From an uncultured Chloroflexia bacterium (lineage in GTDB: Bacteria; Chloroflexota; Limnocylindria; Limnocylindrales; CSP1-4), in NCBI GenBank assembly GCA_963720495.1, contig CAVRFU010000011.1:246-64245 (forward strand): a DNA stretch of 64,000 bases, in the 5' to 3' direction. Each line of letters opens with the position of its first letter. Within the stretch, counting starts at the first letter, position 1. Both the position numbers and the translations under genes were made by a program. The notes under the pieces were generated by a model, which searched no databases, was not told the DNA's origin, and was given only the letters and a program-made list of their open reading frames with translations. Below, one piece after another: positions 14,420 through 48,108 of the stretch.

Positions 14420-14438
14420 TTAGGAGCCCCGCGGATCG

Positions 14439-16341: not shown

Positions 16342-16413
16342 CCTCGGCGGCCACCACGTGCCTCGGCGGCCCCGGCGCCGGTCGCGCTCGAGCTCGCCGG
16401 CCTCCTCGCGTCG

Positions 16414-18824: not shown

Positions 18825-18852
18825 CGGACTCGGGTTCACAGACCGGACTGGC

Positions 18853-20133
<1,281 letters not shown>

Positions 20134-25755: not shown

Positions 25756-26358
25756 CTACTCGCTGAAGCGCTCTTCCTTCCAGGGGTCCGCATCGTTGTT
25801 GTAGCCGTAGCGCTCCCAGAACCCGAGCTGGTCGTGATCCAGGAACTCCAGGCCGCGGATCCACTTGCTGCTCTTCCAGAAGTAGCGCTTGGGCACGAGG
25901 AGCCGGAGCGGGTAGCCGTGCTCCAGCTCGAGCGGCACGCCGCCGAACGTGTCCGCCAGCAGCACATCGTCGTCGTCGAGCACCGAGAGCGGGAGATTGG
26001 CCGTGTAGCCCTGCTCCGCGTGCGAGACGACGTGCGTGGCGCTCGGTCGGACGGCCGCCATCTCCAGGATCGTCTGGATGGGCACACCCTCCCAGGTCGT
26101 GTCGAGCTTCGACCAGCGGGTCACGCAGTGGATGTCCGTCTGGACCGTCTTGCGGGGCAGCTCCTTGAACTGCTGCCACGTGAGGGTGAACGGGCTGTCG
26201 ACCTCGCCCCAGACCTTGAAGTCCCAGGTCGCGAGGTTCGTGTGCGGCACGGAGCCGTAGTGGAGGACCGGGAACTTGTCGGTCTTGTACTGGCCGGGCG
26301 GGATCCGGTCGGCGACGGCGGTGTCCTGTTCCTTCCCGCCGAAGAGTCGTTCGAACAT
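25756..26358 (-). CDS. sulfite-oxidase-like molybdopterin oxidoreductase (catalytic domain only)
   Basis: DIHCVTRWSKLDTTWEGVP (Moco Cys region), EHGYPLRLLVPKRYFWKSSKWIRGLEF. Confidence 0.8.
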   Translation of the reverse strand: MFERLFGGKEQDTAVADRIPPGQYKTDKFPVLHYGSVPHTNLATWDFKVWGEVDSPFTLTWQQFKELPRKTVQTDIHCVTRWSKLDTTWEGVPIQTILEMAAVRPSATHVVSHAEQGYTANLPLSVLDDDDVLLADTFGGVPLELEHGYPLRLLVPKRYFWKSSKWIRGLEFLDHDQLGFWERYGYNNDADPWKEERFSE

Positions 26359-26459
26359 TGCATGTCCTCGGGCATGTGGGCTGCTCCAGTCATCGTCTCA
26401 TACCTGCCGTGCCGATCCGGCGGCCGTGCCATCGGCCCGGGCTGCGGTACCCTTCGCGC

Positions 26460-27260
26460 GTGCCCCAGCCCGACATCACGCCCGAGCCCACTCCCGCGTC
26501 CGCCGCTGCCCCGCCGCGGGTGATCATCGTCATGCCCGCCTACAACGCCGCCCGGACGCTGGAGCGGACGTACGCGGACATCCCGCACGATCTGGTCGAC
26601 CGGATCATCCTCGTCGACGACGTGTCCCGCGACGAGACCGTCACGATCGCCCGACAGCTCGGGCTGGACGTGATCATCCACAGCCAGAACCGTGGCTACG
26701 GCGGCAACCAGAAGACGTGCTACGACGCCGCCCTGGCCGCCGGCGCCGACATCGTGGTCATGCTCCACCCGGACTACCAGTACGACGCGACCCGGATCCC
26801 GGCCCTGATCGCGCCGATCGTCGACGGCGCCAGCGACCTGATGCTCGGCAGCCGCTTCCTCGGCGACCCACTGGCGGGCGGCATGCCTCGCTGGAAGTAC
26901 GTCAGCAACCGGTTCCTGACCGGGGTCGAGAACGTCGCCTTCGGACTTCACCTGTCCGAGTACCACACGGGACTGCGCGCCTACAGCCGGCGGCTCCTGG
27001 AGACCGTCCCGTACCAGCTCAACAGCGACGACTTCGTCTTCGACCAGGAGCTGATCGCCCAGGTCGTGGCGGCGGGCATGGCGGCGCGGATCGGCGAGGT
27101 CGGCGTCCCCACCCGGTACTTCGAGGAGGCATCCTCGGTCGGGCTCAAGCGGAGCATCGTGTACGGGCTGTCCACCCTGCGCGTCGTCGCCCGCTACCTG
27201 CTCCACCGGTTGCGCGTGCGCCGCTCGCCGAAGCTCGCTGCCCGACGCCGCCACGACTGA
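26460..27260 (+). CDS. family 2 glycosyltransferase
   Basis: VIIVMPAYNAARTLERT, ILVDDVSRDET, GYGGNQKT, HPDYQYD. GTG 26460 is preferred over ATG 26358, which would directly abut the divergent gene start. Confidence 0.8.
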   Translation: MPQPDITPEPTPASAAAPPRVIIVMPAYNAARTLERTYADIPHDLVDRIILVDDVSRDETVTIARQLGLDVIIHSQNRGYGGNQKTCYDAALAAGADIVVMLHPDYQYDATRIPALIAPIVDGASDLMLGSRFLGDPLAGGMPRWKYVSNRFLTGVENVAFGLHLSEYHTGLRAYSRRLLETVPYQLNSDDFVFDQELIAQVVAAGMAARIGEVGVPTRYFEEASSVGLKRSIVYGLSTLRVVARYLLHRLRVRRSPKLAARRRHD

Positions 27261-27267
27261 CCGGCCG

Positions 27268-28272
27268 ATGAGGATCAGCCGGAACGCTCTGCTGCGGGCC
27301 ACGCTCGGGATCGCGATCAGCGTCGTCGCGATCGTCATCCTGATCAACTCGGTCGATATCGAGGCGGCCCTCCAGGTCCTCCGCACCGCATCGCCGGCCT
27401 GGATCGCGGTCATGTTCGTGACGGCGATCATCGACATCGGCGCCCGGGGCGGCCGCTGGCGAGCCCTCCTCGAGCCGATCGCGCCGCTGCCGTACAGCCG
27501 GGTCCTCGGCTACACCTACATCGGCTACCTCGCCAACAACGTCCTGCCGGCACGGCTGGGCGAGCTGTACCGGAGCCACGCCCTGGGCGAAGGCGAGGGC
27601 ATCAGCCGGCCGACGGTGCTCGGCACGGTCGTCGTGGAACGGGTCGTGGACACGGTCATGGTGGTCGCGATCGCCGCGATCGCGGTCCTGGTGCTGAGCG
27701 TCCGCGGCGTGATGACGAGCGCCGTGCTGCTCGGGCTCGCCTTCGTCGCCTTGCTGGTCATCGCGCTCGGGCTGGGCATCGTGGCCCACCGGCTGCCCGG
27801 TGCCGATCGCGTCATCGCGATCATCGCCCGACGGCCGCGACTCCTCGAGCTGGCGCGTCGCCTGCGCGACGGCCTCGCCGTGGCGCAACGGCCCCGCGTG
27901 ATCGTCGTCGCGCTCGCCTTCAGCGCCGTGGCCTGGACCGCGTCGACCGCCACGTTCCTGGTGGCCGGCCAGGCCGTCGGGGTCGAGCTGTCGGTCGCCC
28001 AGGCAGCCCTGATCACCAGCGGCGTGGCGCTCGTCTCGATCGTCCCGTCCGGTCCCGGCTACGTCGGCACGTTCGAGCTGACCGTCGTGGCCATCGCCGA
28101 CGGGCTCGGCATCCCGCGCGATCCGGCGTTCGCGCTCGGCCTGCTGGTCCACGTCGTGGTCCTGCTGGTCACGTCGGTCGGTGGCGTGATCGCGATGCTC
28201 GCCCTGCGCCGCCGGCGCGAGGCCGCGGCCGGATCGGCCGCCGCGGTCCCGGGGAGCAGGCCCGCGCCGTGA
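27268..28272 (+). CDS. flippase-like membrane protein (UPF0104 / lysylphosphatidylglycerol synthase TM-region family)
   Basis: Eight hydrophobic helices; motif YIGYLANNVLPARLGELYR. Confidence 0.7.
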   Translation: MRISRNALLRATLGIAISVVAIVILINSVDIEAALQVLRTASPAWIAVMFVTAIIDIGARGGRWRALLEPIAPLPYSRVLGYTYIGYLANNVLPARLGELYRSHALGEGEGISRPTVLGTVVVERVVDTVMVVAIAAIAVLVLSVRGVMTSAVLLGLAFVALLVIALGLGIVAHRLPGADRVIAIIARRPRLLELARRLRDGLAVAQRPRVIVVALAFSAVAWTASTATFLVAGQAVGVELSVAQAALITSGVALVSIVPSGPGYVGTFELTVVAIADGLGIPRDPAFALGLLVHVVVLLVTSVGGVIAMLALRRRREAAAGSAAAVPGSRPAP

Positions 28273-30266
28273 CCGAGGTCGGGAGCTTCCCGAACGTCCT
28301 CGCGCCCCTCACCCTGCGGCACCGGACATTGCGCAGCCGGATCAACTTCGGGGCGCACACCACCAACATGTCCGAGGAGGGCCTGCCCGGGAAGCGCCAC
28401 ATCGGCTACTACCGCGAGCGGGCGCTGGGCGGCGTCGGGATGATCGTCGTGGAGCCCGTCCCGGTCCACCGGACAGGCGTCCTGACCCGGGGCAACTTCC
28501 GCCACGGCGACGACGCGATCATCCCCGCCTTTCGCCGCCTGACCGACGCCTGTCGTGAGGCGAACCCGGACATCGTGATGATCCACCAGCTGTACCACCT
28601 CGGTCAGCACAACGACGCCGACAACTCGTTCGCGCCGAACTGGTCGCCGTCCGGCCTGCCCTCGTACCACGACGCCGACGGCAGCCACGCGATGACCGAG
28701 GCCGAGATCGAGGAGCTGATCGCGGGGTTCGTCGCGGCCGCCGGCCGGGCGCAGGCGAGCGGCTTCGACGGGATCGAGATCTTCGCCGGCTACAACGGCG
28801 CGGTCGACCAGTTCTGGACGACCTGGACGAACCGGCGGACCGACCGCTGGGGCGGATCGTTCGAGAACCGGATGCGCTTCTCGTCCGAGATCCTGCGACG
28901 GATCCGCGAGCGCTGCGGCGACGACTTCATCATCGGCATGGGCGTCAGCGCCGACCCCGACTCGCCGGCGATGCTGTCCGTCGAGGAGCTGGCCCGGACC
29001 GTCGGCTGGCACGACGAGCGACGGCTGATGGACTACGTCTCGTGCGGCACGGGCTCGTACTTCGACTTCTTCAAGATCATCCCGCCGTCGCTCTTCCCGC
29101 AACGGCTCGGCGAGCCGTACGCGGCGGCCCTCAAGGCCGTCTGCCGGAACGCCCTCGTCCAGGCCGAGAGCCACATCCGGACGCCCGCCGCGGCGGAGGC
29201 GGTCCTCGCCGCCGGTCATGCCGACATGGTCAGCATCGTCCGCGGCCAGATCGCCGACCCGCACCTCGTCGCCAAGACGCGTGCCGGCCGCGCCGACGAG
29301 GTCCGGCCGTGCATCTCGTGCAACCAGCTGTGCTGGGGCCGCCGATCGCGCGACTACTGGATCTCCTGCCTGGTCAACCCGTCGGCCGGCCGCGAGTGGG
29401 AGTGGGACGGCGACCGGTTCGAACCCGCGGCCAGGCCCCGGCGCGTCCTTGTCGTCGGCGGCGGTCCGGCCGGGCTGGAGGCGGCTCGCGTCGCGGCGGA
29501 ACGGGGCCATCACGTGATCCTCATGGAGCGCGGGCCGGAGCTCGGCGGCCAGTTCCGTCTGGCCGGGCGCCAGCCATCGCGCGGCCAGATCACGGACCTC
29601 ATCGCCTGGTTCGGCCGGCGGTTGGACGCCCTGGGCGTGGACGTCCGGCTGGGCGTCGAGGCGAGCGCAGCGGACGTGACGGCGGCCGAGGCGGACGAGG
29701 TCATCGTGGCGACCGGGTCGCGCCCGCCGCTGACCGGCTTCCAGCGGGCCCTGCCGGAGCTGGACCGGCTGCCCGGCGTGGACGGCCCCGACGTCGTCCC
29801 GGTCCAGGCGGTGCTGGATGGCGCCGTCCTCGCGGGCCGGCGCGTCCTCGTGCTCGACGACGTCCAGGACTGGCGGGGTCTCGGCACGGCCACGTTCCTG
29901 GCCGAGGCGGACCACGACGTGACGATCGTGACCGCCGCGGCCGTGGTGGCGGGCGGCCTCTATCACAGCGCCGCCGACGGACCGCTCCGGAAGCGCTTCG
30001 CCGAGGCCGGCGGACGATCCATCACGTCGGCCTGCGTCCTCGAGTGGCGCGCGGGTGTGGCCACGATCCGCTCGACGCTGACCGGCGAGGTCTCGACGCT
30101 CGAGGCGGATGCGCTCGTGATCGCCGAGACGCCGGTCTCCGAGACGGGGCTGGCCGCCGACCTCACCGCCCTCGGCGTGCCGTTCCACGAGATCGGCGAC
30201 GCGGTCGCGCCCCGTCGCGCCAGCCTCGCCTTCTTCGAGGCCCGGGAGCTCGCCCGCCGGCTCTGA
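28269..30266 (+). CDS. FMN/FAD/[4Fe-4S] oxidoreductase of the trimethylamine dehydrogenase / 2,4-dienoyl-CoA reductase / N-methylproline demethylase family
   Basis: OYE-like TIM-barrel N-terminus (RINFGAHTTNM, GVGMIVVEP), Cys cluster CISCNQLCWG...SC, then an ADP-binding fold VLVVGGGPAGLEAARVAAERGHHVILME. GTGA overlap with the upstream gene. Confidence 0.85.
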   Translation: MTEVGSFPNVLAPLTLRHRTLRSRINFGAHTTNMSEEGLPGKRHIGYYRERALGGVGMIVVEPVPVHRTGVLTRGNFRHGDDAIIPAFRRLTDACREANPDIVMIHQLYHLGQHNDADNSFAPNWSPSGLPSYHDADGSHAMTEAEIEELIAGFVAAAGRAQASGFDGIEIFAGYNGAVDQFWTTWTNRRTDRWGGSFENRMRFSSEILRRIRERCGDDFIIGMGVSADPDSPAMLSVEELARTVGWHDERRLMDYVSCGTGSYFDFFKIIPPSLFPQRLGEPYAAALKAVCRNALVQAESHIRTPAAAEAVLAAGHADMVSIVRGQIADPHLVAKTRAGRADEVRPCISCNQLCWGRRSRDYWISCLVNPSAGREWEWDGDRFEPAARPRRVLVVGGGPAGLEAARVAAERGHHVILMERGPELGGQFRLAGRQPSRGQITDLIAWFGRRLDALGVDVRLGVEASAADVTAAEADEVIVATGSRPPLTGFQRALPELDRLPGVDGPDVVPVQAVLDGAVLAGRRVLVLDDVQDWRGLGTATFLAEADHDVTIVTAAAVVAGGLYHSAADGPLRKRFAEAGGRSITSACVLEWRAGVATIRSTLTGEVSTLEADALVIAETPVSETGLAADLTALGVPFHEIGDAVAPRRASLAFFEARELARRL

Positions 30267-30338
30267 GGCAGTGGCGCGCCGTACCATGGACCAGGCACGA
30301 TCCCGCGACACGGCGCACGGCACCCCGAGGAGATGCGA

Positions 30339-31886
30339 ATGACCGCTCCCGACCTCGAACACCCCTCGGTCCGCCGCGGTCGTGCCGCCCGCCAGACGGA
30401 GCGCCTGGCGCGAGCCATGGATACGGTCCCGTACCTGACCCGCACCCTGCAGCCCGTCGAGGTCATCTCGACCGAGGGGCTCGAGCAGATCGAGGCGAAC
30501 GCGGACACCCTCCTGGAGCAGGTCGGCATCGAGATCGTCAACTTCCCCGAGGCGGTGGAGATCTTCCGCGGCGCCGGCGCGGAGATCGAGGGCCAGCGGG
30601 TGCGCTTCCCGCGCGGGATGTGCCGCTCCCTGGTCATGGCCTCCGCGCCGACGGTCTTCACGCAGCTGGCCCGCAACCCGGCGCGCAGCGTCCGGATCGG
30701 CGACCCGTACATGGTCCTCGTGCCGACCTACGGCTCGCCGTTCATCCACAACCTCGATGACGGCCGGCGCTACGCGACGATCGAGGACTTCCGCAACTTC
30801 GTGAAGCTGGCCTACACGAGCCGGACGCTCCACCACGATGGCGGCACGCTCTGCGAGCCCGTGGACCTGCCGGTCAACAAGCGCCACTTCGAGATGGTCT
30901 ACAGCCACATCCGCTACTCGGACCGGGCGTTCATGGGCTCCGTGACACACCCCAGCCGGGCGCAGGACTCGGTCGACATGGCCCGGATCGTGTTCGGGGC
31001 CGAGACCACGGAGCGGGAGCACGTCATCATGGGCCTGGCCAACGCCAACTCGCCCATGTCGTGGGACTTCAACATGCTCGGCTCGGCCAAGGTCTACGCC
31101 GAGAACAACCAGATCATGCTCATCACGCCGTTCATCCTGGGCGGCGCGATGGCCCCGGTCACCGTCGCGGCGCAGGCCACCCAGACGCTGGCCGAGGCGC
31201 TGGCGGGCATGGCCTTCTGCCAGATCGTCCGGCCTGGGGCGCCGGTGATCTTCGGCTCATTCGCGTCGTCGATGTCGATGCAGACCGGCGCGCCGACGTT
31301 CGGGACGCCCGAACCGCAGCTCGTGCTCTTCGTCCTGGCCGCGCTCGCCCGGCGGCTCAAGGTGCCGTTCCGGAGCGGGGGCAACTTCACGGCCTCCAAG
31401 GTGCCCGACTACCAGGCGGCCTACGAGAGCGCCATCAGCTACATGGCGACGATGCAGGCCGGGGTCAACTTCAACCTCCACACGGCGGGCTGGCTGGAGG
31501 GCGGCCTGGCCATCGGCTACGAGAAGTTCATCCTCGACGAGGACCAGGCGTCGATGACCGAGGCCTATGTCAAGGGTGTCGACGTCAGCGACAACGGCTA
31601 CGCACTCGACGCCATGCTGGCCGGCGGTCCGGGTCAGCATTTCCTGGGATCGCCCCACACGCTGGCCAACTTCGAGAACGCCTTCTGGCGCTCCGAGCTG
31701 TCGAACAACGACAGCTTCGAGCAATGGGAGCTCGATGGCGCGCTCGATGCCGCCCAGCGCGCCAACCTCCGCTGGAAGAAGCGCCTGGCCGAGTACGAGA
31801 TGCCGGCGATCGACGACGCCGTCCACGACGAGCTGGTCGACTGGATGGACCGCCGCAAGGCGAGCTTCCCAGACTCCGATGTCTGA
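30339..31886 (+). CDS. MttB-family (trimethylamine methyltransferase superfamily) protein, non-pyrrolysine type, paralog 1
   Basis: About 515 aa with no internal stop. Shares long blocks with paralog 2 (GGAMAPVT, QxVRPGAPVI(F/Y)G, GAPxFGTPE, GWxEGGL, HFxG). GAGGAG precedes the second ATG at 30339 by 6 nt. Confidence 0.9.
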   Translation: MTAPDLEHPSVRRGRAARQTERLARAMDTVPYLTRTLQPVEVISTEGLEQIEANADTLLEQVGIEIVNFPEAVEIFRGAGAEIEGQRVRFPRGMCRSLVMASAPTVFTQLARNPARSVRIGDPYMVLVPTYGSPFIHNLDDGRRYATIEDFRNFVKLAYTSRTLHHDGGTLCEPVDLPVNKRHFEMVYSHIRYSDRAFMGSVTHPSRAQDSVDMARIVFGAETTEREHVIMGLANANSPMSWDFNMLGSAKVYAENNQIMLITPFILGGAMAPVTVAAQATQTLAEALAGMAFCQIVRPGAPVIFGSFASSMSMQTGAPTFGTPEPQLVLFVLAALARRLKVPFRSGGNFTASKVPDYQAAYESAISYMATMQAGVNFNLHTAGWLEGGLAIGYEKFILDEDQASMTEAYVKGVDVSDNGYALDAMLAGGPGQHFLGSPHTLANFENAFWRSELSNNDSFEQWELDGALDAAQRANLRWKKRLAEYEMPAIDDAVHDELVDWMDRRKASFPDSDV

Positions 31887-31898
31887 GCCGCGCGTCCG

Positions 31899-33959
31899 TC
31901 AGGCGGGCGGCTTCGGCCGATCGGGATCGTCCGGTGCCGGTGCCGTGGCGTCGGACCCGGCGGCGGCCACGACCGCCTCGGCCGCGACTTCGCCAGAGGC
32001 CTCCTCAGTCGCCGGCGTGGTCAGGACCGGCGCGTCCGCGTCGGTCGAGCGCCGCTGGAGCCGGCGCAGCTCCTCCAGCGGGATGTGGCAGCTCATCAGG
32101 TGACCCGGCTCGACCTCGACCAGCGGTGGCTCTGTGACCTCGCACAGGCCGCGAATGACGCGCGGACATCGCGTGTTGAACACGCAGCCGCTCGGCGGGT
32201 TGGCCGGGCTCGGGATCTCGCCCTCGAGGATGATCCGCCTCCGGTCCTCGCCGTCCACGTTGGGCACTGCCGACAGGAGGGCCTCCGTGTAGGGGTGGTT
32301 CGGGCCACGGAAGACGGTCTCGGAATCGCCCACCTCCATGATCCGGCCCAGGTACATGACCGCGATCCGGTCGGCCAGGTAACGGACCACGCCGAGATCG
32401 TGCGAGATCAGGAGATAGCTGGTCTTGCTCTTGAGCTGGAGCTCGGACAGCAAGTTGAGGATGGCGGCCTGGACCGAGACATCGAGCGCGCTGGTGGGCT
32501 CGTCAGCGACGACGATCCGCGGGTCGCCGGCGAACGCGCGGGCGATCGCCACGCGCTGCTTGAGCCCGCCGGACAGCTGCCGTGGCTTGAGATCGAGGTG
32601 ACGCTGGGTCAGGCGCAGGTCGGCGGCCAGCTTGTCGACCCGCTCGTCGACCGCTTTGCCCTTGAGTCCGGTCAGCTTGCTGACGGAGCGGGCCAGGATG
32701 TGGCGCGCCGTCCAGCCTCGGTTGAGTGCCGAGTCCGGGTTCTGGAAAACCATCTGGATGGAGCGCTTGTCCTCGGTCGGGCGGCTCGACGACTGGGCCG
32801 CGAGGGCGTGCTCGTCGAGCTCGAGGGTGCCGCCGGCGTCGGGGCTCTCGATGCCGAGGATCGTCCGGGCGAGGGTCGACTTGCCGGAGCCTGACTCACC
32901 GACCAGCCCGAGAGTCTCGCCGTCGAACAGCTCGAGGTCGACCTTGACCAGGGCCGGCACGTCGTGGCCGCTCTGATGGAAGGTCTTGGAGACGTGGTCG
33001 ACGGCCAGCGTCCGCTCGCCGTGGATCGTGTCCGCGCCGACGATCGAGGGCGGCTCGACGATCTCGGCCAGCCGGTCGCGATGGTGGCAGCGCGTCCACT
33101 GGCCACCGCCGACGTCGACGATCGGCGGCACGACCGTGCGGCACAGCTCATCGGCCAGGGGGCAGCGGTCGACGAACACGCAGGTCGGCAGGTCCGTCCC
33201 GATCTGGGGAAGGTTGCCGGGGATCGTCGAGAGCGCCCGTTCGGACTTGCGGATGCCACGCCGCGGGAGCGACCGCAGCAGGCCCAGCGTATAGGGGTGC
33301 TGTGGGTTGGCGAAGACCGCGGATGCCTCGCCTTCCTCCACGATCTTGCCCGCGTACATGACGCCGACGCGGTCGCACAGCGTGCGGATGACGCCGAGGT
33401 TGTGGGCGATCAGGAGAACCGCCGCGTTGGTCTCCGCCTGTAGGCTCCGGACCAGGTCCAGGACGCTCGCCTCGACCGTGGCGTCGAGCCCGGTCGTGGG
33501 CTCGTCGAGGACCAGCAGCTTCGGGTTGGAGGCCAGCGCGATCGCGATGACGATCCGCTGCTGCATCCCGCCGGAGAGCTGATAGGGATATCGCTGAGCG
33601 ACCCCCTCCGGATCGGCGATCTGGACCCGCTGGAGGGCCTTGAGCGCGCTTTCCTGCGCTTGCTTCTGGTCCTGGCCGAGGATCGTGAACGCCTCGACGA
33701 CCTGCGGGCCGACCTTGGTCGTCGGATTCAGCGCAGCGCCCGGATCCTGATAGACCATCGAGGCGTGATGGATCCGGAACTGGCGAACCTCGTCGTCGCT
33801 CATCTTGGTGATGTCGTCGCCCGCCACGAGGATGCGGCCACCCGTGATGACCGCGTTCCTCGGGAGATACCGAACCGCTGCGTAGGCTGTCGTGGACTTC
33901 CCACAACCCGATTCCCCGACGAGACCGTACGACTCCCCGGGTCGAACCTCGAACGTCAC
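31899..33959 (-). CDS. ABC transporter ATP-binding protein, two fused ABC domains (DppD-DppF type); true N-terminus probably at 34084 through a frame break
   Basis: Two Walker A motifs (GESGCGKS, GESGSGKS), two LSGG signatures, two oligopeptide-type C-terminal regions. The conserved LKVEDLSLAYVVRG lies in frame upstream of the first start codon, while ATG 34084 (ATGA overlap with the permease stop) is in another frame. Confidence 0.85.
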   Translation of the reverse strand: MTFEVRPGESYGLVGESGCGKSTTAYAAVRYLPRNAVITGGRILVAGDDITKMSDDEVRQFRIHHASMVYQDPGAALNPTTKVGPQVVEAFTILGQDQKQAQESALKALQRVQIADPEGVAQRYPYQLSGGMQQRIVIAIALASNPKLLVLDEPTTGLDATVEASVLDLVRSLQAETNAAVLLIAHNLGVIRTLCDRVGVMYAGKIVEEGEASAVFANPQHPYTLGLLRSLPRRGIRKSERALSTIPGNLPQIGTDLPTCVFVDRCPLADELCRTVVPPIVDVGGGQWTRCHHRDRLAEIVEPPSIVGADTIHGERTLAVDHVSKTFHQSGHDVPALVKVDLELFDGETLGLVGESGSGKSTLARTILGIESPDAGGTLELDEHALAAQSSSRPTEDKRSIQMVFQNPDSALNRGWTARHILARSVSKLTGLKGKAVDERVDKLAADLRLTQRHLDLKPRQLSGGLKQRVAIARAFAGDPRIVVADEPTSALDVSVQAAILNLLSELQLKSKTSYLLISHDLGVVRYLADRIAVMYLGRIMEVGDSETVFRGPNHPYTEALLSAVPNVDGEDRRRIILEGEIPSPANPPSGCVFNTRCPRVIRGLCEVTEPPLVEVEPGHLMSCHIPLEELRRLQRRSTDADAPVLTTPATEEASGEVAAEAVVAAAGSDATAPAPDDPDRPKPPA

Positions 33960-34080
33960 CCCGCGCAGGACGGGGCGCTGTATCCCGCGGACGACATAGG
34001 CGAGCGACAGGTCTTCGACCTTGAGCGCAGCCGGGGAGGCCGCGGGCCCCCCTGGGGCGGAGGCGGGGCCAGCTCGGTCG

Positions 34081-35928
34081 TCATTCGCTCAACACAGACT
34101 GCAGGGAGTCCGCGATCAGGTTCACCGCGACGACCGTGCTCGCGATCGCCAGCGCGGGGAACAGGGTCGGCCACCACGCCCCGCTGATCATGTTGTTGTA
34201 CTCCTGGCTCACGGTCAGACCCCAGTCCGCGGACGGCGGCTGGATCCCGACGCCGAGGAACGACAACGTGGCGATGGTGAAGATCGCGTAGCCGAACCGT
34301 ACCGTCATCTCGACGACCGTCGGTCCGAGGACGTTCGGAAAGATCTCCCGGGACAGGATGAAGAAGCCCGTCTCGCCACGGAGCTTGGCCGCGACGACAT
34401 AGTCCAGCTGTCTCTCGGACAGGACCGCCGAGCGAACGGTCCGGGCGACGATCGGCGTGAACAGGATGCCGACCACGCACACGACGACCAGCGGCGACGT
34501 GCCCAGCACGACGAGTGTCAGGAGCGCGACGAGGACGACCGGCAGGGCCAGGAATGCCTCGACGATCCGGCTCAGGACGTCGTCGATCGTCCCGCGGTAG
34601 TACCCCATCACGAGACCCAGGAGGGTCCCGGCCGCGACCCCGAGCAGCGCGGCAAGGGGGGCGAACAGCAACACGTCACGCGAACCGACCATGACCCGCG
34701 ACAGAACGTCACGACCGAGTCGGTCCGTGCCCATGAGGTGCTCAGGGCTCGGCGGCAGGTGGCCGGCCGCGAAGTAGTTGAACGGATCGTAAGGCGTGAT
34801 CCGTTCGCCCAGAACGGCCGTGATGATCCAGCCGATGATGACGATGTTGCCGATGATGAAGGCTGGCCGCCGGATGAGCACCGCGAAGGTCTCCCGGCGG
34901 GCCTGGGACCGCTCGGAGGCTGCTGGAGCCGCCATCGGCGCGGTCGGCTGGGGCTCGATGATGACATCGACCATCAGGTGTTCGCAGTCCAGTCGGATCC
35001 GTGGGTTCATCCAGGCGATCGTCATGTCCGCCACCAGCGTCGCGAGCATATAGACGATGCCGATGATGATGACGCCCGCGGTGAGCATCGGGATGTCCTT
35101 GCGCTGGGCGGCGAACAGCATCGTCTGGCCCATCCCGTTGTAGTTGAAGATCTTCTCGACCGCGATGATCCCGCCGAACAGGTAGCCGACCTGGACGGCG
35201 ATGACCGCGACGGTCGGGATGAGGGCATTTCGCAGGACGTGCTTGCGCATCACCTGGCTCGTGCTGAGACCCTTCATCGTCGCAGTCCGCGCGTAGTCGG
35301 ACTGGAGGACTTCGATGGTCCCTGCCCGCGTCATCCGCGCGATGTAGCCGAAGTACACGATCGCCATCGCGGTCGCCGGCATCAGGAGGTATTGCACCTG
35401 GGTCAGGATGCCAGCGTTGGGCGGTGGTGTTGCGAGGACGGGCAGTGCCTTGAGGCCGACCCCAACCACCACGACAAGGATGGTGCCGGTCACAAACTCC
35501 GGGATCGACGACGAGGTGACGCCGAGGAGGACGATCGCCCGATCGGTCGGCCGATCGCGACGCCTCGCGGCATACAAGCCGGCCGCGATGGCGAGGGGGA
35601 CCGTGATGGCGAGCGCGAGGCCGGCCAACTTTGCTGACCGGGCCATGGCGGCCACGAGCTGTGGGAGGACCGGCTGGTCATTGACGTATGAGTTCCCGAA
35701 GTCGAGCGTGACCACGCTCTTGATGGTGTCGAGGTACTGGACGATCAGGGGCCGGTTCGTCCCGAGTTTCTCGTTGAGCGCGTCGACGCTCTCCTGGGGT
35801 GCGAATGGGCCGAGGATCGTGCGCCCGACATCATTGGGCAGCACATTCGCGATCACGAAGACGATCGTGACCAGGATCCATATCGTGATGAGTGAGAGGA
35901 GCAGTCGGCGCGTGATGAACCGTGCCAT
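34081..35928 (-). CDS. ABC transporter permease, DppB-like and DppC-like halves in one ORF
   Basis: 615 aa. The first half ends with NPRIRLD, the usual DppB C-terminus. The second half starts at MVDVIIEP..., with RRPAFIIGNIVIIGW and the DppC-type core. Confidence 0.85.
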   Translation of the reverse strand: MARFITRRLLLSLITIWILVTIVFVIANVLPNDVGRTILGPFAPQESVDALNEKLGTNRPLIVQYLDTIKSVVTLDFGNSYVNDQPVLPQLVAAMARSAKLAGLALAITVPLAIAAGLYAARRRDRPTDRAIVLLGVTSSSIPEFVTGTILVVVVGVGLKALPVLATPPPNAGILTQVQYLLMPATAMAIVYFGYIARMTRAGTIEVLQSDYARTATMKGLSTSQVMRKHVLRNALIPTVAVIAVQVGYLFGGIIAVEKIFNYNGMGQTMLFAAQRKDIPMLTAGVIIIGIVYMLATLVADMTIAWMNPRIRLDCEHLMVDVIIEPQPTAPMAAPAASERSQARRETFAVLIRRPAFIIGNIVIIGWIITAVLGERITPYDPFNYFAAGHLPPSPEHLMGTDRLGRDVLSRVMVGSRDVLLFAPLAALLGVAAGTLLGLVMGYYRGTIDDVLSRIVEAFLALPVVLVALLTLVVLGTSPLVVVCVVGILFTPIVARTVRSAVLSERQLDYVVAAKLRGETGFFILSREIFPNVLGPTVVEMTVRFGYAIFTIATLSFLGVGIQPPSADWGLTVSQEYNNMISGAWWPTLFPALAIASTVVAVNLIADSLQSVLSE

Positions 35929-36004
35929 CGGCTACCTCTGCCCAGGATTGCGATGGGGCAGACGGAGGCCGGTGGATCCGTCCACCGGCCTCACGTTGTG
36001 CGTG

Positions 36005-37732
36005 TCAGGCGACCTTCGAGGCCGCCGAGAAGACCATTTGGCCGAGCCCGCTGGCGTACAGCGGCCCGTTGAACTTCTTCGAGCTGCCGGCGAGATAGTT
36101 GTAGAAGTAAGGCAGGCCGATGGCGGTGTCCTCGACGAGGATCGTCTCCATGTTCTTGCAGGCCGCCTTCTGAGCGTCGACGCCGACTGATGTCTGGAAT
36201 GCCTTGAAGGCGTCGTCGAAGGCGGTCGATCCGTACTGCGACGAGTTCCAGATGCCCTTGCTCTTGAGCGCCGCGTTGAGGAAGACGTCCGGCGTGCCCC
36301 GGTGCCCGTAGTCGACGATGCCGAGCTCGGCAGCGCCGGAGCACGGCGGGTCGGCCGGATCAGCCGGGCACCACTGGGCACCGTAGAAGGTGTCCAGGCT
36401 TTCCACCGCGACGTTCAGGGTGATGCCCGCCGGGGCGGCCTGGCTCTTCAGGAGCGTCGCGAGGTCAGGGATCTCGAGCAGCTGGCCCGCATGGAGCGTC
36501 GCGGTCAGGTTGCTGACGCCGGCGTCCGCGAGCAGGGCCTTGGCCTTGTCGATGTCCTGGGTGCGCTGCGGGACGGTCGAGTCGAAGTACGGGTAGCCCT
36601 CCCAGATCGGATGATCGTTGCCCAGCTGTGCCTTGCCCTGGAAGAGCTGCTGGATGAGGGCGGGTCGATCGAAAGTCAGCGCGAGCGCCTGGCGCACACG
36701 CTTGTCCGCGAACTGGCCCTTGTCCGTGCGCATCCAGATCTGCCGATGGAGGGCGGCCGGCGCGGCGATCGCATTGAAGTTCGGGTCGTCCAAGAGGGAT
36801 TTCCCGGACAGGATGTCGAACTGGATGATCGCGTCGACCTGGTCGCCCTGGTACGCGGTGACCATCGGACCGGTGGCGTCGAAGAAGATGAACTCGAGGC
36901 CGTCCAGCGGGGTCTTGCCGCCCCACCAGTCCTCGTTCCGGACGAACGACGCGCCGGTGTTCGGGTCGTACTTCGTGAGCTTCCAGGCACCCGTTCCGGC
37001 CGGGACCTTGTCGAGGGTCGTCCCCGCGACGTAGGCCTTCGGGGTGATCAGGGTCTGCGCGTTGAAAACGGAAACCAGATAGGGGAAGTTGCCGTTCGCG
37101 CCGATGAGCGTGAAGACGACCGTATTGGCGTCCTTGGCCACGGCGCCGCCCGACCCGAGGATCCCCTTCAGGCCGGAGTTGCCAGCGGTGACCAGGCGCT
37201 CCATCGTGGCGACGACGTCGTCGGCGGTGAAAGGCGATCCGTCGTGCCACTTCACGTTCTGGCGGAGATCGAACGTCCAGACGGTCCCGTCAGCGTTCGG
37301 CGTCCACTTGAGCGCGAGGCCGGGACCGATGTCGACGAGGTTGTTCGGGGTGAGCGCGCACAGGAATTCGAACGACTGCGAGGTGATGCCGTAGCCGCCC
37401 AGGTCCTGCATGGCGACCGGATCGACCTTGACCGGCTTCTGGGCTGCGATCCGCATCGTGCCGCCGATGGCGGCCGACCCGGCCGGCGCGCTGGCACCCG
37501 CCGGCGCGCTGGCACCGGCCGGTGCGCTGCCGCCGGCCGAGGCGGCAGGGCTGGCGTTGGTGCCGCCGCATGCGGCGATGACCATGCTGATCGATGCCAT
37601 GGACAGCCCGACGATCGCGCCCCGTTGCATGAACTCGCGACGGCTCAGGCGGCCGGCGGCGTACGCCTCCACCACGTCGAGCTGCAACGGCGCTGCCGAG
37701 CGGCGGACCTTGTCCAGCTTGGGATAGTCCAT
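36005..37732 (-). CDS. ABC transporter substrate-binding lipoprotein, family 5 (peptide/opine/nickel type)
   Basis: ATG at 37732. Tat-like SRREFMQRG, lipobox IAACGG, Ala/Ser/Pro linker, then SBP_bac_5 sequence (LALKWTPNADGTVWTFDLRQNVKWHDGSPFTADDV). The upstream 367 codons of ORF 36005..38833 are junk. Confidence 0.9.
   Translation of the reverse strand: MDYPKLDKVRRSAAPLQLDVVEAYAAGRLSRREFMQRGAIVGLSMASISMVIAACGGTNASPAASAGGSAPAGASAPAGASAPAGSAAIGGTMRIAAQKPVKVDPVAMQDLGGYGITSQSFEFLCALTPNNLVDIGPGLALKWTPNADGTVWTFDLRQNVKWHDGSPFTADDVVATMERLVTAGNSGLKGILGSGGAVAKDANTVVFTLIGANGNFPYLVSVFNAQTLITPKAYVAGTTLDKVPAGTGAWKLTKYDPNTGASFVRNEDWWGGKTPLDGLEFIFFDATGPMVTAYQGDQVDAIIQFDILSGKSLLDDPNFNAIAAPAALHRQIWMRTDKGQFADKRVRQALALTFDRPALIQQLFQGKAQLGNDHPIWEGYPYFDSTVPQRTQDIDKAKALLADAGVSNLTATLHAGQLLEIPDLATLLKSQAAPAGITLNVAVESLDTFYGAQWCPADPADPPCSGAAELGIVDYGHRGTPDVFLNAALKSKGIWNSSQYGSTAFDDAFKAFQTSVGVDAQKAACKNMETILVEDTAIGLPYFYNYLAGSSKKFNGPLYASGLGQMVFSAASKVA
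37482..37535 (-). repeat. 3 x 18-nt tandem repeat inside the SBP linker (encodes GASAPA repeats)
   Basis: gccggcgcgctggcaccc / gccggcgcgctggcaccg / gccggtgcgctgccgccg on the plus strand. Confidence 0.8.
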
Positions 37733-37918
37733 CGTTCTGGTTCCTCCGGGAGCAAGATCACCTGACGGCGACGAGCACCTTGATATGCATCGATCGCATG
37801 GGCCTCGCATCGCCCGGAACGGTTTCCTCCAGCCGGGCGACGGATGTCTCGGAACGGTACTTGCGGCCATTCCCACTGTCAACGAACCCGGCCGGTGCGG
37901 CTGGGTGATACTCCGCAC

Positions 37919-39025
37919 GTGCGTATCACCGCGATCCGATGCGAGCGACTGGTCGTGCCGCTGGACCCGCCCTTCCCGGCCGCCTGGGACCCGATCCCGC
38001 GCCGGTCGTTCGCGGCCACGATCGTGCGGGTCGAGACGGACGAGGGCGTCGTGGGGATCGGCTCGGGTGACACGATGGATGGCTTCGACGCGTTCGAGCA
38101 CCTGTTCATCGGCGGAGACCCGCTGGCCATCGCCCGCCACGTCCGGGCGATCGAGACGATCGACTTCCACGCCGGCCGCTACTGGCCGCTCGAGGTGGCC
38201 CTGTGGGACATCATCGGCCAGGTCGCGGGGCTGCCCGTCGCCACGCTCTTCGGCGGCGCGACGGACGCCATCCCCGCCTACGCCTCGTGCGGGATGCTGC
38301 TGCCGGCCGCGGAGCGTGCCGAGTCGGCCGTCCGCCTGCGCGAGGAGGGGTTCACGGCCCTCAAGATCCGGATCGATCCGCGCCGCCTGGACGAGGGCCT
38401 GGCCGCGGTCACCGCGACGCGGGCCGCGATCGGCGATTCGATGGCGATCATGGTCGACCTCAACCAGGGCTGGCGGATGGCCGGCGACCTGTCCGCCTCG
38501 CTCGGTCCGGTCGGCGCCCGCGAGATCGCGGCACGCTTGGCCGATGAGGGCGTCCTCTGGCTCGAGGAGCCGCTGGCCGGCACGGACCTGCGGGGGCTGG
38601 CTGCGCTGCGCGCGTCGGCGCCCGGGGTCCGGATCGCGGGCGGGGAGATGACCCGGACGTTCACTGAGACGCTGGCCGCCATCGAGGCGGACGCGTATGA
38701 CGTCTTCCAGCCCGACGTCGTCCTGACCGGGATGCTCCGTGCCCGGACGATCGGCGAGCTGGCGCTGGCGCGCAACCGCTGGTTCACCCCGCACACCTGG
38801 ACGAACGGGATCGGCGTGCTGGCCAACCTGCATGTCGCGGCCGGGGTCGGGGGCGGCCCGTTCCTGGAGTATCCGTACGACCCGCCCGGCTGGACCGCCG
38901 AGCGCCGCGACTTCATGCTCGCCGAGCCGGTCCGCCCAGGGCCCGACGGCCGTCTCCGCGTGCCGGCCGTGCCGGGTCTCGGGATCGTGCTCGACGAGGC
39001 CGCTGTCCGCCGGTACGCGGCGTGA
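37919..39025 (+). CDS. enolase-superfamily enzyme (mandelate racemase / muconate lactonizing enzyme family)
   Basis: GTG 37919. LKIRIDP, metal-ligand blocks IMVDLNQGW, WLEEP, IAGGE, then DVFQPDV and FTPHTW. Confidence 0.85.
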   Translation: MRITAIRCERLVVPLDPPFPAAWDPIPRRSFAATIVRVETDEGVVGIGSGDTMDGFDAFEHLFIGGDPLAIARHVRAIETIDFHAGRYWPLEVALWDIIGQVAGLPVATLFGGATDAIPAYASCGMLLPAAERAESAVRLREEGFTALKIRIDPRRLDEGLAAVTATRAAIGDSMAIMVDLNQGWRMAGDLSASLGPVGAREIAARLADEGVLWLEEPLAGTDLRGLAALRASAPGVRIAGGEMTRTFTETLAAIEADAYDVFQPDVVLTGMLRARTIGELALARNRWFTPHTWTNGIGVLANLHVAAGVGGGPFLEYPYDPPGWTAERRDFMLAEPVRPGPDGRLRVPAVPGLGIVLDEAAVRRYAA

Positions 39026-41484: not shown

Positions 41485-43050
41485 GTGACGGATATGGAGA
41501 CGCCCGCGGGCGAGGGACTGCGGCGACGCCGCGGCGGTGGCCGGGAGGGCCACGCCCGGAACGCGCTGCCGCAGCAGCCGCCGTGGGCCCAGCCCCGGAT
41601 GCGCTACCGCCCGACCGAGGTCGTGTCGGCCGACGAGCTGGAGGCCATCCACATCGGCTCGCTCCGCGTCCTGTCCGAGATCGGCATGGACTTCCTCGAT
41701 GCGGAGGCGCGCGAGGTCCTGCGGGCGGCCGGCGCCCAGACCACCGAGGGCTCGCTGCGCGTGCGGTTCGACCCGGACATGGTCACCGAGCTCATCAAGA
41801 CCGCTCCGGCGACGTTCACCCTGCACGCCTGGAACCCGGAGCACGACCTGGAGCTCGGCGGCGACTGGGTGGCGTTCGGGACGGTCGGCAGCCCACCCAA
41901 CGTCGCCGACCTCGACCACGGCCGGCGGATCGGCAACCGCGCCGACTACCAGAACCTGCTCCGCCTGGGCCAGTCGCTCAACTCGGTCCACTTCCTGGCC
42001 GGCTACCCGGTCGAGCCGGTCGACATCCACCATGGCGTCCGCCACCTCCACGCCACCTTCGACGCGCTGACGCTGATGGACAAGCCGATCCACGCCTACA
42101 GCCTCGGTCGCCAGCGCAACATCGACACCCTCGAGATGGTCCGGATCGCGCGCGGCATCGACGCCGAGCAGCTCGATCGCGAGCCGTCGATCTTCACCGT
42201 CGTCAACTCGAGCTCGCCGCTCCGGCTGGACGCCCCGATGCTCCAGGGGATCATGGAGTTCTCGGCCCACAACCAGGCCGTGTGCATCACGCCGTTCACG
42301 CTGTCCGGCGCGATGGCGCCGGTCACCCTGGCCGGCGCGCTGGCGGAGCAGAACGCCGAGGCGCTGGCCGGGATGGTCCTGACCCAGGCGGTCCGGCCCG
42401 GGGCGCCGGTGATCTACGGCGGCTTCACCTCGAACGTCGACATGCAGTCGGGCGCGCCGGCGTTCGGGACGCCGGAGTACATGCGGACCGCGATGATCGG
42501 CGGCCAGCTGGCGCGCCGCTACGGCGTCCCGTACCGCTCGTCGAACGTCAACGCGGCCAACGCGCTCGACGCCCAGGCGGCCTACGAGTCGGTCTTCTCG
42601 CTGTGGGGCGCGATCCAGGGCGGGGTCAACCTGCTGATGCACGGGGCGGGCTGGATGGAGGGCGGGCTCCACGCCAGCTACGAGAAGATGATCCTCGACG
42701 CCGAGCTGCTCGGGATGGTCGCCGCGTTCCTCGAGCCGGTCGTCGTGGACGAGGAGACGCTCGCCTTCTCGGCGATGCAGGAGGTCGGCCCGGGCGGCCA
42801 CTTCTTCGGCGCCGAGCACACCCAGTCGCGCTACCGGACCGCGTTCCACAAGCCGATGCTCAGCGACTGGCGCAACTACGAGACCTGGCAGGAGGCGGGC
42901 TCGCCCGAGCTGCCCGCCAAGGCCAACCGGATCTGGAAGGAACTGCTGGCGGCGTACGAGCCGCCGCCCATGGACCCCGCCGTCGCCGAGGAGCTGGAGG
43001 CGTTCGTCGCCCGGCGCGTGGCGGAGGGCGGCGTCCCGACCGACTACTGA
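41485..43050 (+). CDS. MttB-family methyltransferase, non-pyrrolysine type, paralog 2
   Basis: 521 aa with no internal stop. GGGAGG 5 nt upstream of GTG 41485. Same conserved blocks as paralog 1. Confidence 0.9.
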   Translation: MTDMETPAGEGLRRRRGGGREGHARNALPQQPPWAQPRMRYRPTEVVSADELEAIHIGSLRVLSEIGMDFLDAEAREVLRAAGAQTTEGSLRVRFDPDMVTELIKTAPATFTLHAWNPEHDLELGGDWVAFGTVGSPPNVADLDHGRRIGNRADYQNLLRLGQSLNSVHFLAGYPVEPVDIHHGVRHLHATFDALTLMDKPIHAYSLGRQRNIDTLEMVRIARGIDAEQLDREPSIFTVVNSSSPLRLDAPMLQGIMEFSAHNQAVCITPFTLSGAMAPVTLAGALAEQNAEALAGMVLTQAVRPGAPVIYGGFTSNVDMQSGAPAFGTPEYMRTAMIGGQLARRYGVPYRSSNVNAANALDAQAAYESVFSLWGAIQGGVNLLMHGAGWMEGGLHASYEKMILDAELLGMVAAFLEPVVVDEETLAFSAMQEVGPGGHFFGAEHTQSRYRTAFHKPMLSDWRNYETWQEAGSPELPAKANRIWKELLAAYEPPPMDPAVAEELEAFVARRVAEGGVPTDY

Positions 43051-43064
43051 GAGGGACCGAGCGG

Positions 43065-47747: not shown

Positions 47748-48108
47748 GCCGTTGCGCGGGCTGCGCGTGGTCGCGGACCCGGCCGCCCTCGACGGCGCCC
47801 GCTGGCACGGCCCGGACGTGACCGTGCTCCGGCTCGCACCCGACGACGCCTTCGCCATCGGCGCCGAGACCGTCGACATCGACGACGAGCACGCGATCGT
47901 CGAACCGGAGGCCGGGTTCGCCGGCGTCTGGCTCCCGGTCGAGGTCATCGCGCACCACCTCGAGTGGCCGCTCCCGGCCGAGCGTCCCGCCCTCGCCCAG
48001 GGGTTCGTGGCGACCGTCCCGGCCAAGGTCTGGCTGCCCGACGACGGCGAGGCGTTGCTCCTCACGGCCGCCGCCTACGCGGACGAGCTAGCGGGGCGAC
48101 TCCGATGA
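47734..48108 (+). CDS. soxG: short sarcosine oxidase gamma-subunit-like protein
   Basis: The assignment rests on position (overlaps the soxA stop, ATGA overlap with soxB) and weak SoxG-like C-terminal similarity (QGFVATVPAKVWLPDDGEALLLTAAAYADELAGRL). It is shorter than the roughly 200 aa I recall for SoxG. Confidence 0.45.
   Translation: MPALEPLRGLRVVADPAALDGARWHGPDVTVLRLAPDDAFAIGAETVDIDDEHAIVEPEAGFAGVWLPVEVIAHHLEWPLPAERPALAQGFVATVPAKVWLPDDGEALLLTAAAYADELAGRLR

Follow-up and report, generated by a model that had tools for sequence, protein, structure and literature searches.

An MttB-family methyltransferase, an uncharacterised flavoprotein and a peptide-type importer form a candidate betaine catabolism module in uncultured Chloroflexota

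The window analysed here is a stretch of 64,000 nucleotides from an uncultured Chloroflexia bacterium (GenBank assembly GCA_963720495.1, contig CAVRFU010000011.1, positions 246 to 64,245). Its nearest relatives are Chloroflexota metagenome-assembled genomes labelled Chloroflexia or Candidatus Limnocylindrales. Between 28 and 39 kb it carries six genes that encode a flavoprotein (OYE-A), a methyltransferase of the MttB superfamily (MttB1), an ABC importer and an enolase-superfamily enzyme, which a first-pass annotation had put forward as a proline betaine type module. The G+C content of the window is 72%, at which random open reading frames (ORFs) are frequent, and genes were therefore called by third-position G+C and checked with Pfam. 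All six genes proved to be real and of the families proposed, and the starts suggested for MttB1 (30339) and for the enolase-family gene (37919) were preferred over their alternatives. The genes are as follows.

28269..30266, plus strand: OYE-A, flavoprotein of the FMN/4Fe-4S/FAD(ADP) type, 665 aa (Pfam Oxidored_FMN, E 3.6e-50, and Pyr_redox_2)
30339..31886 (alternative start 30333), plus strand: MttB1, non-pyrrolysine methyltransferase of the MttB superfamily, 515 aa (Pfam MTTB, E 3.5e-207)
31899..34084, minus strand: Opp/Dpp-type ABC ATPase with two fused nucleotide-binding domains (Pfam ABC_tran twice and oligo_HPY twice)
34081..35928, minus strand: fused OppB/OppC-like permease, 615 aa (Pfam BPD_transp_1 twice)
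36005..37732, minus strand: family-5 solute-binding lipoprotein (Pfam SBP_bac_5, E 3.9e-70)
37919..39025, plus strand: enolase-superfamily enzyme of the mandelate racemase subgroup (Pfam MR_MLE_N and MR_MLE_C, E 8e-47)

MttB1 has a GGAG sequence 6 nt upstream of its start. OYE-A and MttB1 had been called translationally adjacent, which is wrong, as OYE-A stops at 30266 and MttB1 starts at 30339, with a gap of 72 nt. The importer had been described as complete; binding protein, permease and ATPase are all present, but the permeases are fused and the ATPase gene needs a frameshift correction. The ATPase span measures 2186 nt, which is no multiple of 3. Its conserved N-terminus (MTTE...) begins at the ATG at 34084 in one frame and the rest (...AALKVEDLSLAYVV) lies in another, so that a 1-nt indel is implied in the G-run CCCCAGGGGGGCCC, at about 34035-34055, by frame analysis and the N-termini of relatives. 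At least four further frame breaks were found within 45-50 kb of the window, making at least five apparent 1-nt frameshifts in total, in genes that are well conserved otherwise. Because these further frameshifts cluster, the frameshifts are probably sequencing errors, with the homopolymer-indel look of a long-read assembly, and not signs of pseudogenisation.

Eleven distinct Chloroflexota loci were retrieved in which OYE-A is 74-97% identical to that of the window; homologs at 74-98% identity are numerous in soil metagenomes. An MttB1 ortholog follows OYE-A, adjacent and on the same strand, in all eleven loci, and an Opp-type importer is convergent with this pair in ten. Since the gene order recurs in eleven related loci, it is not due to chance. 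The one locus without an Opp-type importer is that of the closest relative (L007, OYE-A 97%). There, the slot between MttB1 and the enolase gene is filled by an OpuAC-type binding protein, a permease and an ATPase, together with a 406-aa protein without Pfam match (L007 13632-18733), exactly at the importer position. This OpuAC system is a classical betaine importer. In five loci (L005, L008, L010, L012 and L016) a second OYE-family gene stands directly after MttB1. The permease of L008 is fused as in the window, and most relatives have two permease genes of 317 and 296 aa. In L005 (15686-18526) the second flavoprotein is separated from the importer by AP_endonuc_2 (xylose-isomerase-like) and GFO_IDH_MocA genes, and the importer ATPase gene is overlapped at its end by a gene for an inosine-uridine nucleoside hydrolase.

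The GTG start of OYE-A overlaps the stop of the upstream LPG_synthase_TM gene by 4 nt (GTGA), and the latter overlaps a GT2 glycosyltransferase gene likewise (26276-28272 for both). This arrangement is kept in about eight related loci and is absent from more distant ones. Given the 4-nt overlaps, the envelope genes and OYE-A may be co-translated.

Among close relatives the upstream unrelated genes (GT2, LPG_synthase_TM and a molybdopterin oxidoreductase) are as syntenic as the module itself, and the importer, being convergent with OYE-A and MttB1, is not co-transcribed with them. Conservation within the lineage is thus weak evidence, and recurrence was sought in other phyla. The gene order might be inherited without any shared function: OYE-A would then use NAD(P)H as an ene, dienoyl-CoA or aryl-CoA reductase, the Opp-type importer would take up peptides or a metal chelate, and MttB1 would act independently, with partners encoded elsewhere. 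We consider this unlikely. OYE-A and MttB genes co-occur across phyla (Chloroflexota, Sinorhizobium fredii and Aminobacter), OYE-A keeps company with HpbA-type enzymes in both phyla, the importer was exchanged for an OpuAC system at the same position, and the module contains no CoA-ligase or acyl-CoA gene.

Through a search of plasmid and chromid records, orthologs of OYE-A with 51-57% identity were found in Rhizobium, Sinorhizobium fredii, Ensifer, Shinella, Mesorhizobium, Aminobacter and Pseudosulfitobacter. All other proteins, FadH and the mycofactocin OYE-2 included, were at most 37% identical. By these identities OYE-A belongs to a separate, sharply bounded and uncharacterised orthogroup, and we treat it as the anchor gene of the module. 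Nine proteobacterial contexts were inspected, annotated or hand-annotated. In all nine, genes of betaine importers or binding proteins, or genes of the proline/hydroxyproline type, are nearby; the neighbours include ProVWX, GlxA-type regulators, P5CR-like, Ldh-family and proline-racemase-like proteins, OCD and enzymes of the hydroxyproline pathway. None of the nine loci was a gbc/dgc/sox context, and no fatty-acid or aryl-CoA genes surrounded OYE-A in the contexts inspected.

In Shinella and R. leguminosarum, ProX/W/V, P5C-reductase-like and Ldh-family oxidoreductase genes are divergent from a second OYE gene, a cupin gene and ETF genes. R. acidisoli and S. fredii have a GlxA-type regulator and an OpuAC binding protein; six S. 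fredii replicons have the OYE-A ortholog and an MttB ortholog in convergent orientation. The Pseudosulfitobacter context comprises ornithine cyclodeaminase, proline-racemase-like and P5CR-like genes and a second OYE gene. Rhizobium ACO-34A carries a pair of ProU systems together with genes for an FAD oxidoreductase, a DHDPS-family protein and an aldehyde dehydrogenase, which is the gene set of hydroxyproline catabolism. Mesorhizobium NZP2077 has an MLE-type enolase-family gene and a GlxA regulator. On plasmid pAA02 of Aminobacter aminovorans (L031 2593-10783), a run on one strand encodes LysR, MttB, a binding protein of family-5 size, a B12-binding protein, an MR/MLE enzyme, OYE-A (53.7%) and a P5CR-like protein. 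This MR/MLE protein scored 486 bits to structures 4e8g/4izg and 426 bits to 2pmq/4h2h, which are structures of HpbD from P. denitrificans and P. bermudensis, and by these scores it is identified as a genuine HpbD ortholog. The pAA02 operon is the most complete gene set of a cobalamin-type (hydroxy)proline betaine pathway that we saw, and the organism is culturable. A P5CR-like gene lies beside OYE-A in four proteobacterial loci, and we might speculate that the OYE-A step involves a cyclic imine or iminium.

The flavoprotein encoded directly after MttB1 in the five sister loci belongs to a different group. It is 49-56% identical to proteobacterial NADH:flavin oxidoreductases, among them the proteins of Rhodobacter CZR27 and Thioclava named hpbA (N-methyl-L-proline N-demethylase) in RefSeq and proteins of S. 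meliloti pSymB, the replicon on which stcD is located (PMC12239276). In a neighbour-joining tree it joined the HpbA group at 100% bootstrap, with Ralstonia DgcA, an ortholog from a canonical dgcA-dgcB-etf-gbcA-gbcB locus, outside. Genetic evidence shows that growth on N-methylproline and on proline betaine needs hpbA (PMC3950512). Canonical Hpb loci of Alphaproteobacteria also seem to include MttB genes. In Shinella PSBB067 (L033 11169-15750), LysR, MttB and HpbA-type genes follow in order, with 37 nt between the last two, and in Rhodobacter CZR27 (L032 7734-20945) an MttB gene flanks a proline betaine locus of LysR, Rieske, ProVWX and hpbA genes. A hybrid of MttB and a flavoprotein demethylase, as the first-pass annotation had imagined, is therefore supported as a recurrent genomic pattern in two phyla, Chloroflexota and Proteobacteria, by the arrangements in the sister loci, S. 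fredii, Aminobacter, Shinella and Rhodobacter CZR27.

Considering these contexts, we propose that the locus encodes a module for breaking down an alpha-amino-acid betaine, with proline or hydroxyproline betaine the likeliest substrate, and we give this reading a probability of roughly 60%, with glycine betaine as the main alternative. The ABC importer would take up the quaternary amine. MttB1 would pass one of the N-methyl groups on to a corrinoid protein whose gene lies elsewhere, in the manner of the known betaine methyltransferases of the MttB superfamily, leaving a tertiary N-methyl amino acid. OYE-A, with an architecture like that of TMADH and HpbA, would then oxidise the tertiary N-methyl amino acid, or a stereoisomer or hydroxylated form of it, and the second methyl group would be released as formaldehyde or an iminium would be formed. 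Of the earlier interpretation, the unit of MttB1, flavoprotein and importer and its hybrid logic are retained, and the identification of the enolase as HpbD and of the flavoprotein as StcD/DgcA is dropped. The proline betaine flavour is backed by the HpbA-type genes of the five sister loci, the contexts of OYE-A and the OpuAC system of L007; the position of MttB1 within the MtgB clade speaks against it.

Several further findings weigh against the proposed proline-type module. The window itself has no second, HpbA-type OYE-family gene. OYE-A carries the motifs CxxCxxxC...C and GGGPAGLEAA, and its best solved structures are C=C reductases, 2-naphthoyl-CoA reductase 6qkg (241 bits) and 2,4-dienoyl-CoA reductase (DCR) 1ps9 (235 bits), which share this Fe-S motif; histamine dehydrogenase (181 bits) and TMADH (157 bits) scored lower. 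OYE-A lacks equivalents of TMADH Cys30 and His172 and has Thr (GAHTT) at the flavin-linking Cys position. Compared with histamine dehydrogenase, two residues are deleted at the position of the GAH motif. The TMADH/histamine dehydrogenase family is marked by a Cys for 6-S-cysteinyl-FMN, a CxxCxxC...C cluster and a His/Tyr/Asp triad in the active site, and OYE-A, which lacks the Cys, this cluster motif and the GAH His, does not fit it. These scores, together with the best NCBIfam match (mycofactocin FadH/OYE 2, below cut-off), would suit a C=C reductase that merely shares its gene order with MttB1. Against such a reductase, the DCR catalytic Tyr166 aligns with Gly in OYE-A, and the DCR alignment ends at residue 526 with the NADPH domain unmatched. 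The C-terminal domain aligns with histamine dehydrogenase to residue 662, with the second GxGxxG missing.

Nor is OYE-A, which had been called StcD/DgcA-like, an ortholog of these enzymes; it is a new paralog. Its identity to HpbA-type and DgcA proteins is 30-34%, and the neighbour-joining tree puts it in a clade of its own, far from the identity of about 50% or more across phyla, within one clade, that marks the HpbA/StcD orthogroup; its linker has four Cys residues and that of the HpbA type three. Orthology to StcD, HpbA or DgcA was rejected on identity, linker Cys count and tree. An amine dehydrogenase acting on an N-methyl imino acid is the reading that would fit the contexts of OYE-A.

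MttB1 covers positions 2-500 of the 500 in profile PF06253. Its ORF is unbroken and has no in-frame amber codon, and it is therefore a non-pyrrolysine member of the family. Its best solved structure is 4yyc (612 bits), and the D. hafniense MtgB scored 372 bits. In MtgB the contacts to glycine betaine are defined as Y97, R312, H348 and F356 (PMC13080624). MttB1 keeps equivalents of the first three and has Gly in place of F356. The residues that hold the carboxylate, R312 and H348, are conserved in MttB1 (VPFRSGG, NLHTAGW), which counts in favour of the proposed betaine module, and also in a second MttB of the window, MttB2. The same pattern, Y97 kept and F356 replaced by Gly, occurs in S. meliloti and Azoarcus proteins of glycine betaine context. 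MttB1 is 63% identical to the Azoarcus protein, which adjoins folD, betA, betB and a choline binding protein, and 56% identical to the S. meliloti protein, which lies in a locus of cobalamin-binding, methyl-tetrahydrofolate, MTHFR, ASKHA and bmt genes, the MtgBCDE locus as described (PMC12478193).

As a serious alternative, of lower probability, the locus could be a glycine betaine module, in which MttB1 is an MtgB ortholog that converts glycine betaine to dimethylglycine and OYE-A is a DgcA-like dimethylglycine/sarcosine demethylase; the proline contexts of the proteobacterial OYE-A orthologs would then reflect a shifted specificity. This alternative draws on the MttB tree, which weighs against a proline-type substrate: MttB1 and its Chloroflexota orthologs form one neighbour-joining clade with the S. 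meliloti MtgB and the Azoarcus MttB (100% bootstrap, 56-63% identity), with the shared motifs VPFRSGG and HTAGWLEGGL. The MttB proteins of Hpb-type loci (Rhodobacter CZR27, S. fredii, pSymB and Mesorhizobium 113-3-3) form a separate 100% clade, and that of Aminobacter is more distant still. The three conserved contacts and the aerobic MtgBCD system already known (PMC12478193) point in the same direction. Opposed to it are the Gly at F356 and the type of the flavoprotein that follows MttB1 in the sister loci, which is HpbA and not DgcA, as well as the OYE-A orthologs, always found with imino-acid genes and in none of nine cases with gbc/dgc/sox genes. Moreover, MttB2, beside a DMGDH-like gene, fits glycine betaine at least as well as MttB1 does. 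The D. hafniense MtgB has only trace activity on proline betaine (PMC13080624). At the pSymB MttB locus of S. meliloti, OYE-A was not nearby. Proline betaine and glycine betaine are two methylene groups apart, and with this difference and the trace activity of MtgB the phylogeny neither settles nor excludes a shift of specificity in MttB1.

The partner genes of MttB1 were sought with Pfam on the ORFs of the window and with tblastn on the window and the eleven related loci. No corrinoid (B12-binding) protein, pterin-binding protein, methylcobalamin:tetrahydrofolate methyltransferase, ASKHA/RamA-like activase or ETF was found in the 64-kb window and these loci, a point against the proposed module. 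Homologs of MtgD and of P5CR-like and Ldh-family proteins were likewise not found in them by tblastn. By analogy, the corrinoid partners may be encoded elsewhere in the genome, as in R. pomeroyi, where they are not adjacent to the MtgB gene either (PMC12478193). Rfam revealed no cobalamin riboswitch in the whole window, the sole match being a tRNA gene (58311-58384), and promoter and terminator scans gave nothing beyond shuffled expectation.

The importer has the features of the Opp/Dpp/Nik type (PepT family), namely a family-5 binding protein, two permease domains and two ATPase domains with oligo_HPY extensions. The binding protein had been assigned to family 5 and not to the ProX type, and this holds: SBP_bac_5 matched, and the ProX/OpuAC-type domain PF04069 was absent from the module by Pfam. 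PF04069 is present at the equivalent position in L007 and beside OYE-A orthologs in rhizobia. The N-terminus of the binding protein, SRREFMQ...IAAC, combines a Tat signal and a lipobox. Its best NCBIfam and PDB matches are distant ones to nickel, peptide and opine binders, as they would be if the importer had no part in betaine use.

Full-length orthologs of the binding protein with 36-38% identity were found on plasmids of Mesorhizobium, Phyllobacterium and Rhizobium. On a plasmid of M. mediterraneum the whole transporter has orthologs (ATPase 56%) and is divergent from Rieske alpha and PDR/VanB reductase genes, with a GlxA regulator and an OYE-family gene close by. Acyl-CoA dehydrogenase and CoA-ligase genes lie on the other side of this importer (L023 2913-20837), and the locus could be a catabolic island for a carnitine- or butyrobetaine-like compound. 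In Mesorhizobium WSM1497, a run of LysR, MttB (57% to MttB2 of the window), Ldh-family, 2-oxoglutarate oxygenase and Rieske alpha genes ends with the ortholog of the binding protein. Two of the four contexts of such orthologs (Phyllobacterium and Rhizobium NZLR1) have no amine genes, a point against a betaine ligand. Considering the Mesorhizobium contexts, the family-5 protein of Aminobacter and the OpuAC swap in L007, a quaternary amine is a plausible ligand by analogy.

The enolase-family gene is indeed divergent from the importer, at 186 nt from the binding-protein gene, as had been reported, and this position is kept in the window and in L004, L007, L009, L010 and L015. The enzyme had been taken for an HpbD-like (hydroxy)proline betaine 2-epimerase feeding MttB1. 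Besides the divergent position, the idea could appeal to the contigs of many metagenomes that hold both the enolase and OYE-A and to the genuine HpbD or MLE-type enzymes that accompany OYE-A in Aminobacter and Mesorhizobium NZP2077. We consider it very improbable on account of the catalytic residues. In an alignment with 2pp0, 4ggb and 5olc, strand 2 of the protein carries K-I-R, strand 6 Asp (QPD) and strand 7 His (PH). Compared with the L-talarate/galactarate dehydratase 2pp0, residues D226, E252, E278, D301 and H328 were all matched. The metal ligands and the dyad of strand-6 Asp and strand-7 His place it in the mandelate racemase subgroup. These motifs are kept in 119 of 120 homologs (82-99% identity). 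The second lysine of the K-x-K motif, the general base of racemases and many dehydratases, is absent and replaced by Arg, again in 119 of the 120; a similar K-L-R is seen in PDB 3bjs, of unknown function.

HpbD belongs to the MLE subgroup and carries catalytic lysines where strands 2 (K-x-K) and 6 end; at strand 6, the MLE-type proteins beside proteobacterial OYE-A have Lys too. The first-pass annotation had asked for this active-site comparison, and the HpbD lysines are missing from the window protein, the outcome that it had named as refuting this part of its reading. The protein scored 54 bits to the HpbD structures 4h2h/2pmq and 88-101 bits to the acid-sugar enzymes Gci, galactonate dehydratase and talarate dehydratase, and is 24.5% identical to the Aminobacter HpbD ortholog. 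Its identity as HpbD was thus rejected on catalytic residues and scores. The exchange of the importer in L007 left the enolase gene where it was, and the gene is missing after the importer in L006 and L011. From these residues, scores and arrangements, the enzyme is probably only a lineage-conserved neighbour, with a doubtful role in the module. An ortholog in Paroceanicella (50% identity) has no betaine genes in its context. Another candidate for HpbD, the MR/MLE protein adjoining MttB in Mesorhizobium 113-3-3, was set aside because its best matches were glucarate-dehydratase-like proteins.

About 2.5 kb beyond the enolase lies a second methylated-amine set (41485-49314), which makes the region of 28-50 kb one of methylated-amine catabolism. 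It also includes a separate GcvT-like gene and a DAO-family gene. Its main genes, and the frame breaks of this part of the window, are as follows.

41485-43050: MttB2, 39% identical to MttB1
43065-45525: DMGDH-like FAD/GcvT fusion gene
About 45040: frame break in the DMGDH-like gene
About 48090 and about 48700: two frame breaks in the DAO gene
About 50000: frame break in the Fe-ADH gene

Elsewhere (14424-20133), a TetR regulator gene, two PaaA/PaaC-family genes and a thiolase gene form a partial cluster of the phenylacetate-CoA oxygenase type. The window also encodes LigB and a luciferase-like monooxygenase. With these genes and the PaaA/C oxygenase genes, the host is apparently aerobic, as judged from its gene content.

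Betaines such as stachydrine and glycine betaine are major osmolytes of plant and microbial origin in soil. Aerobic breakdown of proline betaine is known to begin with a Rieske oxygenase, and to our knowledge a cobalamin-dependent MttB route has been described only for anaerobes (proline betaine) and marine aerobes (glycine betaine). A limited literature search found no description of an aerobic proline betaine route that joins MttB with OYE or HpbA proteins. MttB genes together with HpbA-type or OYE-A-type flavoproteins are carried by Limnocylindrales-like Chloroflexota, which are abundant in soil, and by Aminobacter, Shinella, Sinorhizobium and Rhodobacter. This pattern suggests a widespread, undescribed hybrid pathway and a further demand for cobalamin in soil, and a testable function for the large OYE-A orthogroup and for a clade of binding proteins classed as peptide-type. 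The culturable carriers (Aminobacter aminovorans, S. fredii NGR234 and Shinella) make the hybrid route directly testable.

Tentatively, and with a good deal less confidence than in the module as such, we might go further. In the catabolism of imino-acid betaines, OYE-A could be a new kind of Fe-S flavoprotein that differs from HpbA, StcD and DgcA and carries out a so far undescribed step, for example the oxidation of a D- or hydroxylated N-methyl imino acid. With the adjacent P5CR-like and Ldh-family imine reductases of Proteobacteria it would perhaps bring about a redox stereoinversion. With MttB it would give aerobic soil bacteria of two phyla a cobalamin-dependent way to use proline-type betaines without an oxygenase, and in the window this route would be fed by what would be the first family-5 (peptide/opine) betaine binder.

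The proposed module was compared with known systems. The Hpb pathway of Paracoccus denitrificans and Rhodobacter sphaeroides consists of the epimerase HpbD, the Rieske demethylase HpbB/C as well as HpbA, which demethylates N-methyl-L-proline (PMC3950512). Like it and the Stc2-4/StcD system of S. meliloti, the module would combine import, N-demethylation of a quaternary amine and a flavoprotein acting on an N-methyl imino acid. HpbA-type orthologs (49-56%) after MttB1 in five sister loci and OYE-A orthologs inside HpbD/HpbA/hydroxyproline clusters of Proteobacteria add to the likeness. In contrast to both systems, the module has no Rieske oxygenase, with an MttB-family methyltransferase in the place of the first step; the window has neither an HpbA/StcD ortholog nor HpbD, and its importer is of the Opp type (family 5) instead of ProX/OpuAC.

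MtgBCD(E) serves Ruegeria pomeroyi and S. meliloti as an aerobic glycine betaine methyltransferase that depends on cobalamin (PMC12478193). MttB1 resembles its MtgB as a full-length non-pyrrolysine protein, 56% identical to the protein of the S. meliloti locus, with three of the four glycine betaine contacts kept, and like MtgB of R. pomeroyi it has no corrinoid partners beside it. The differences are the change of F356 to Gly, the phylum Chloroflexota, the lack of mtgC, mtgD and mtgE near MttB1, and the Fe-S flavoprotein partner, which is foreign to the described system. With MtpB, the comparison is one of reaction and not of sequence: a protein of the MttB superfamily carries out the first demethylation of proline betaine, as is proposed here. 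From the work of Picking et al. 2019, MtpB/MtqC/MtqA reportedly transfer methyl groups from proline betaine to tetrahydrofolate in the anaerobe Eubacterium limosum; PMC13080624 and PMC8604678 also mention this system. That system belongs to an anaerobic acetogen with N-methylproline as end product, whereas MttB1 is found in an apparently aerobic host, beside flavoprotein genes for further breakdown.

OYE-A shares with TMADH, histamine dehydrogenase and DgcA the FMN TIM barrel, the Cys-rich Fe-S linker and the Rossmann domain of the ADP/FAD type. It differs from TMADH in having Thr (AHTT) for the Cys of 6-S-cysteinyl FMN, no His172, and CxxCxxxC instead of CxxCxxC. From DgcA it differs in sequence (33% to the Ralstonia ortholog) and in having no DgcB or ETF genes adjacent. 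FadH and 2-naphthoyl-CoA reductase gave the top structure scores (235-241 bits) and have the identical CxxCxxxC...C motif; the Tyr166 of DCR is replaced by Gly in OYE-A and the NADPH domain of DCR is unmatched, and the contexts of OYE-A are those of amine and betaine genes.

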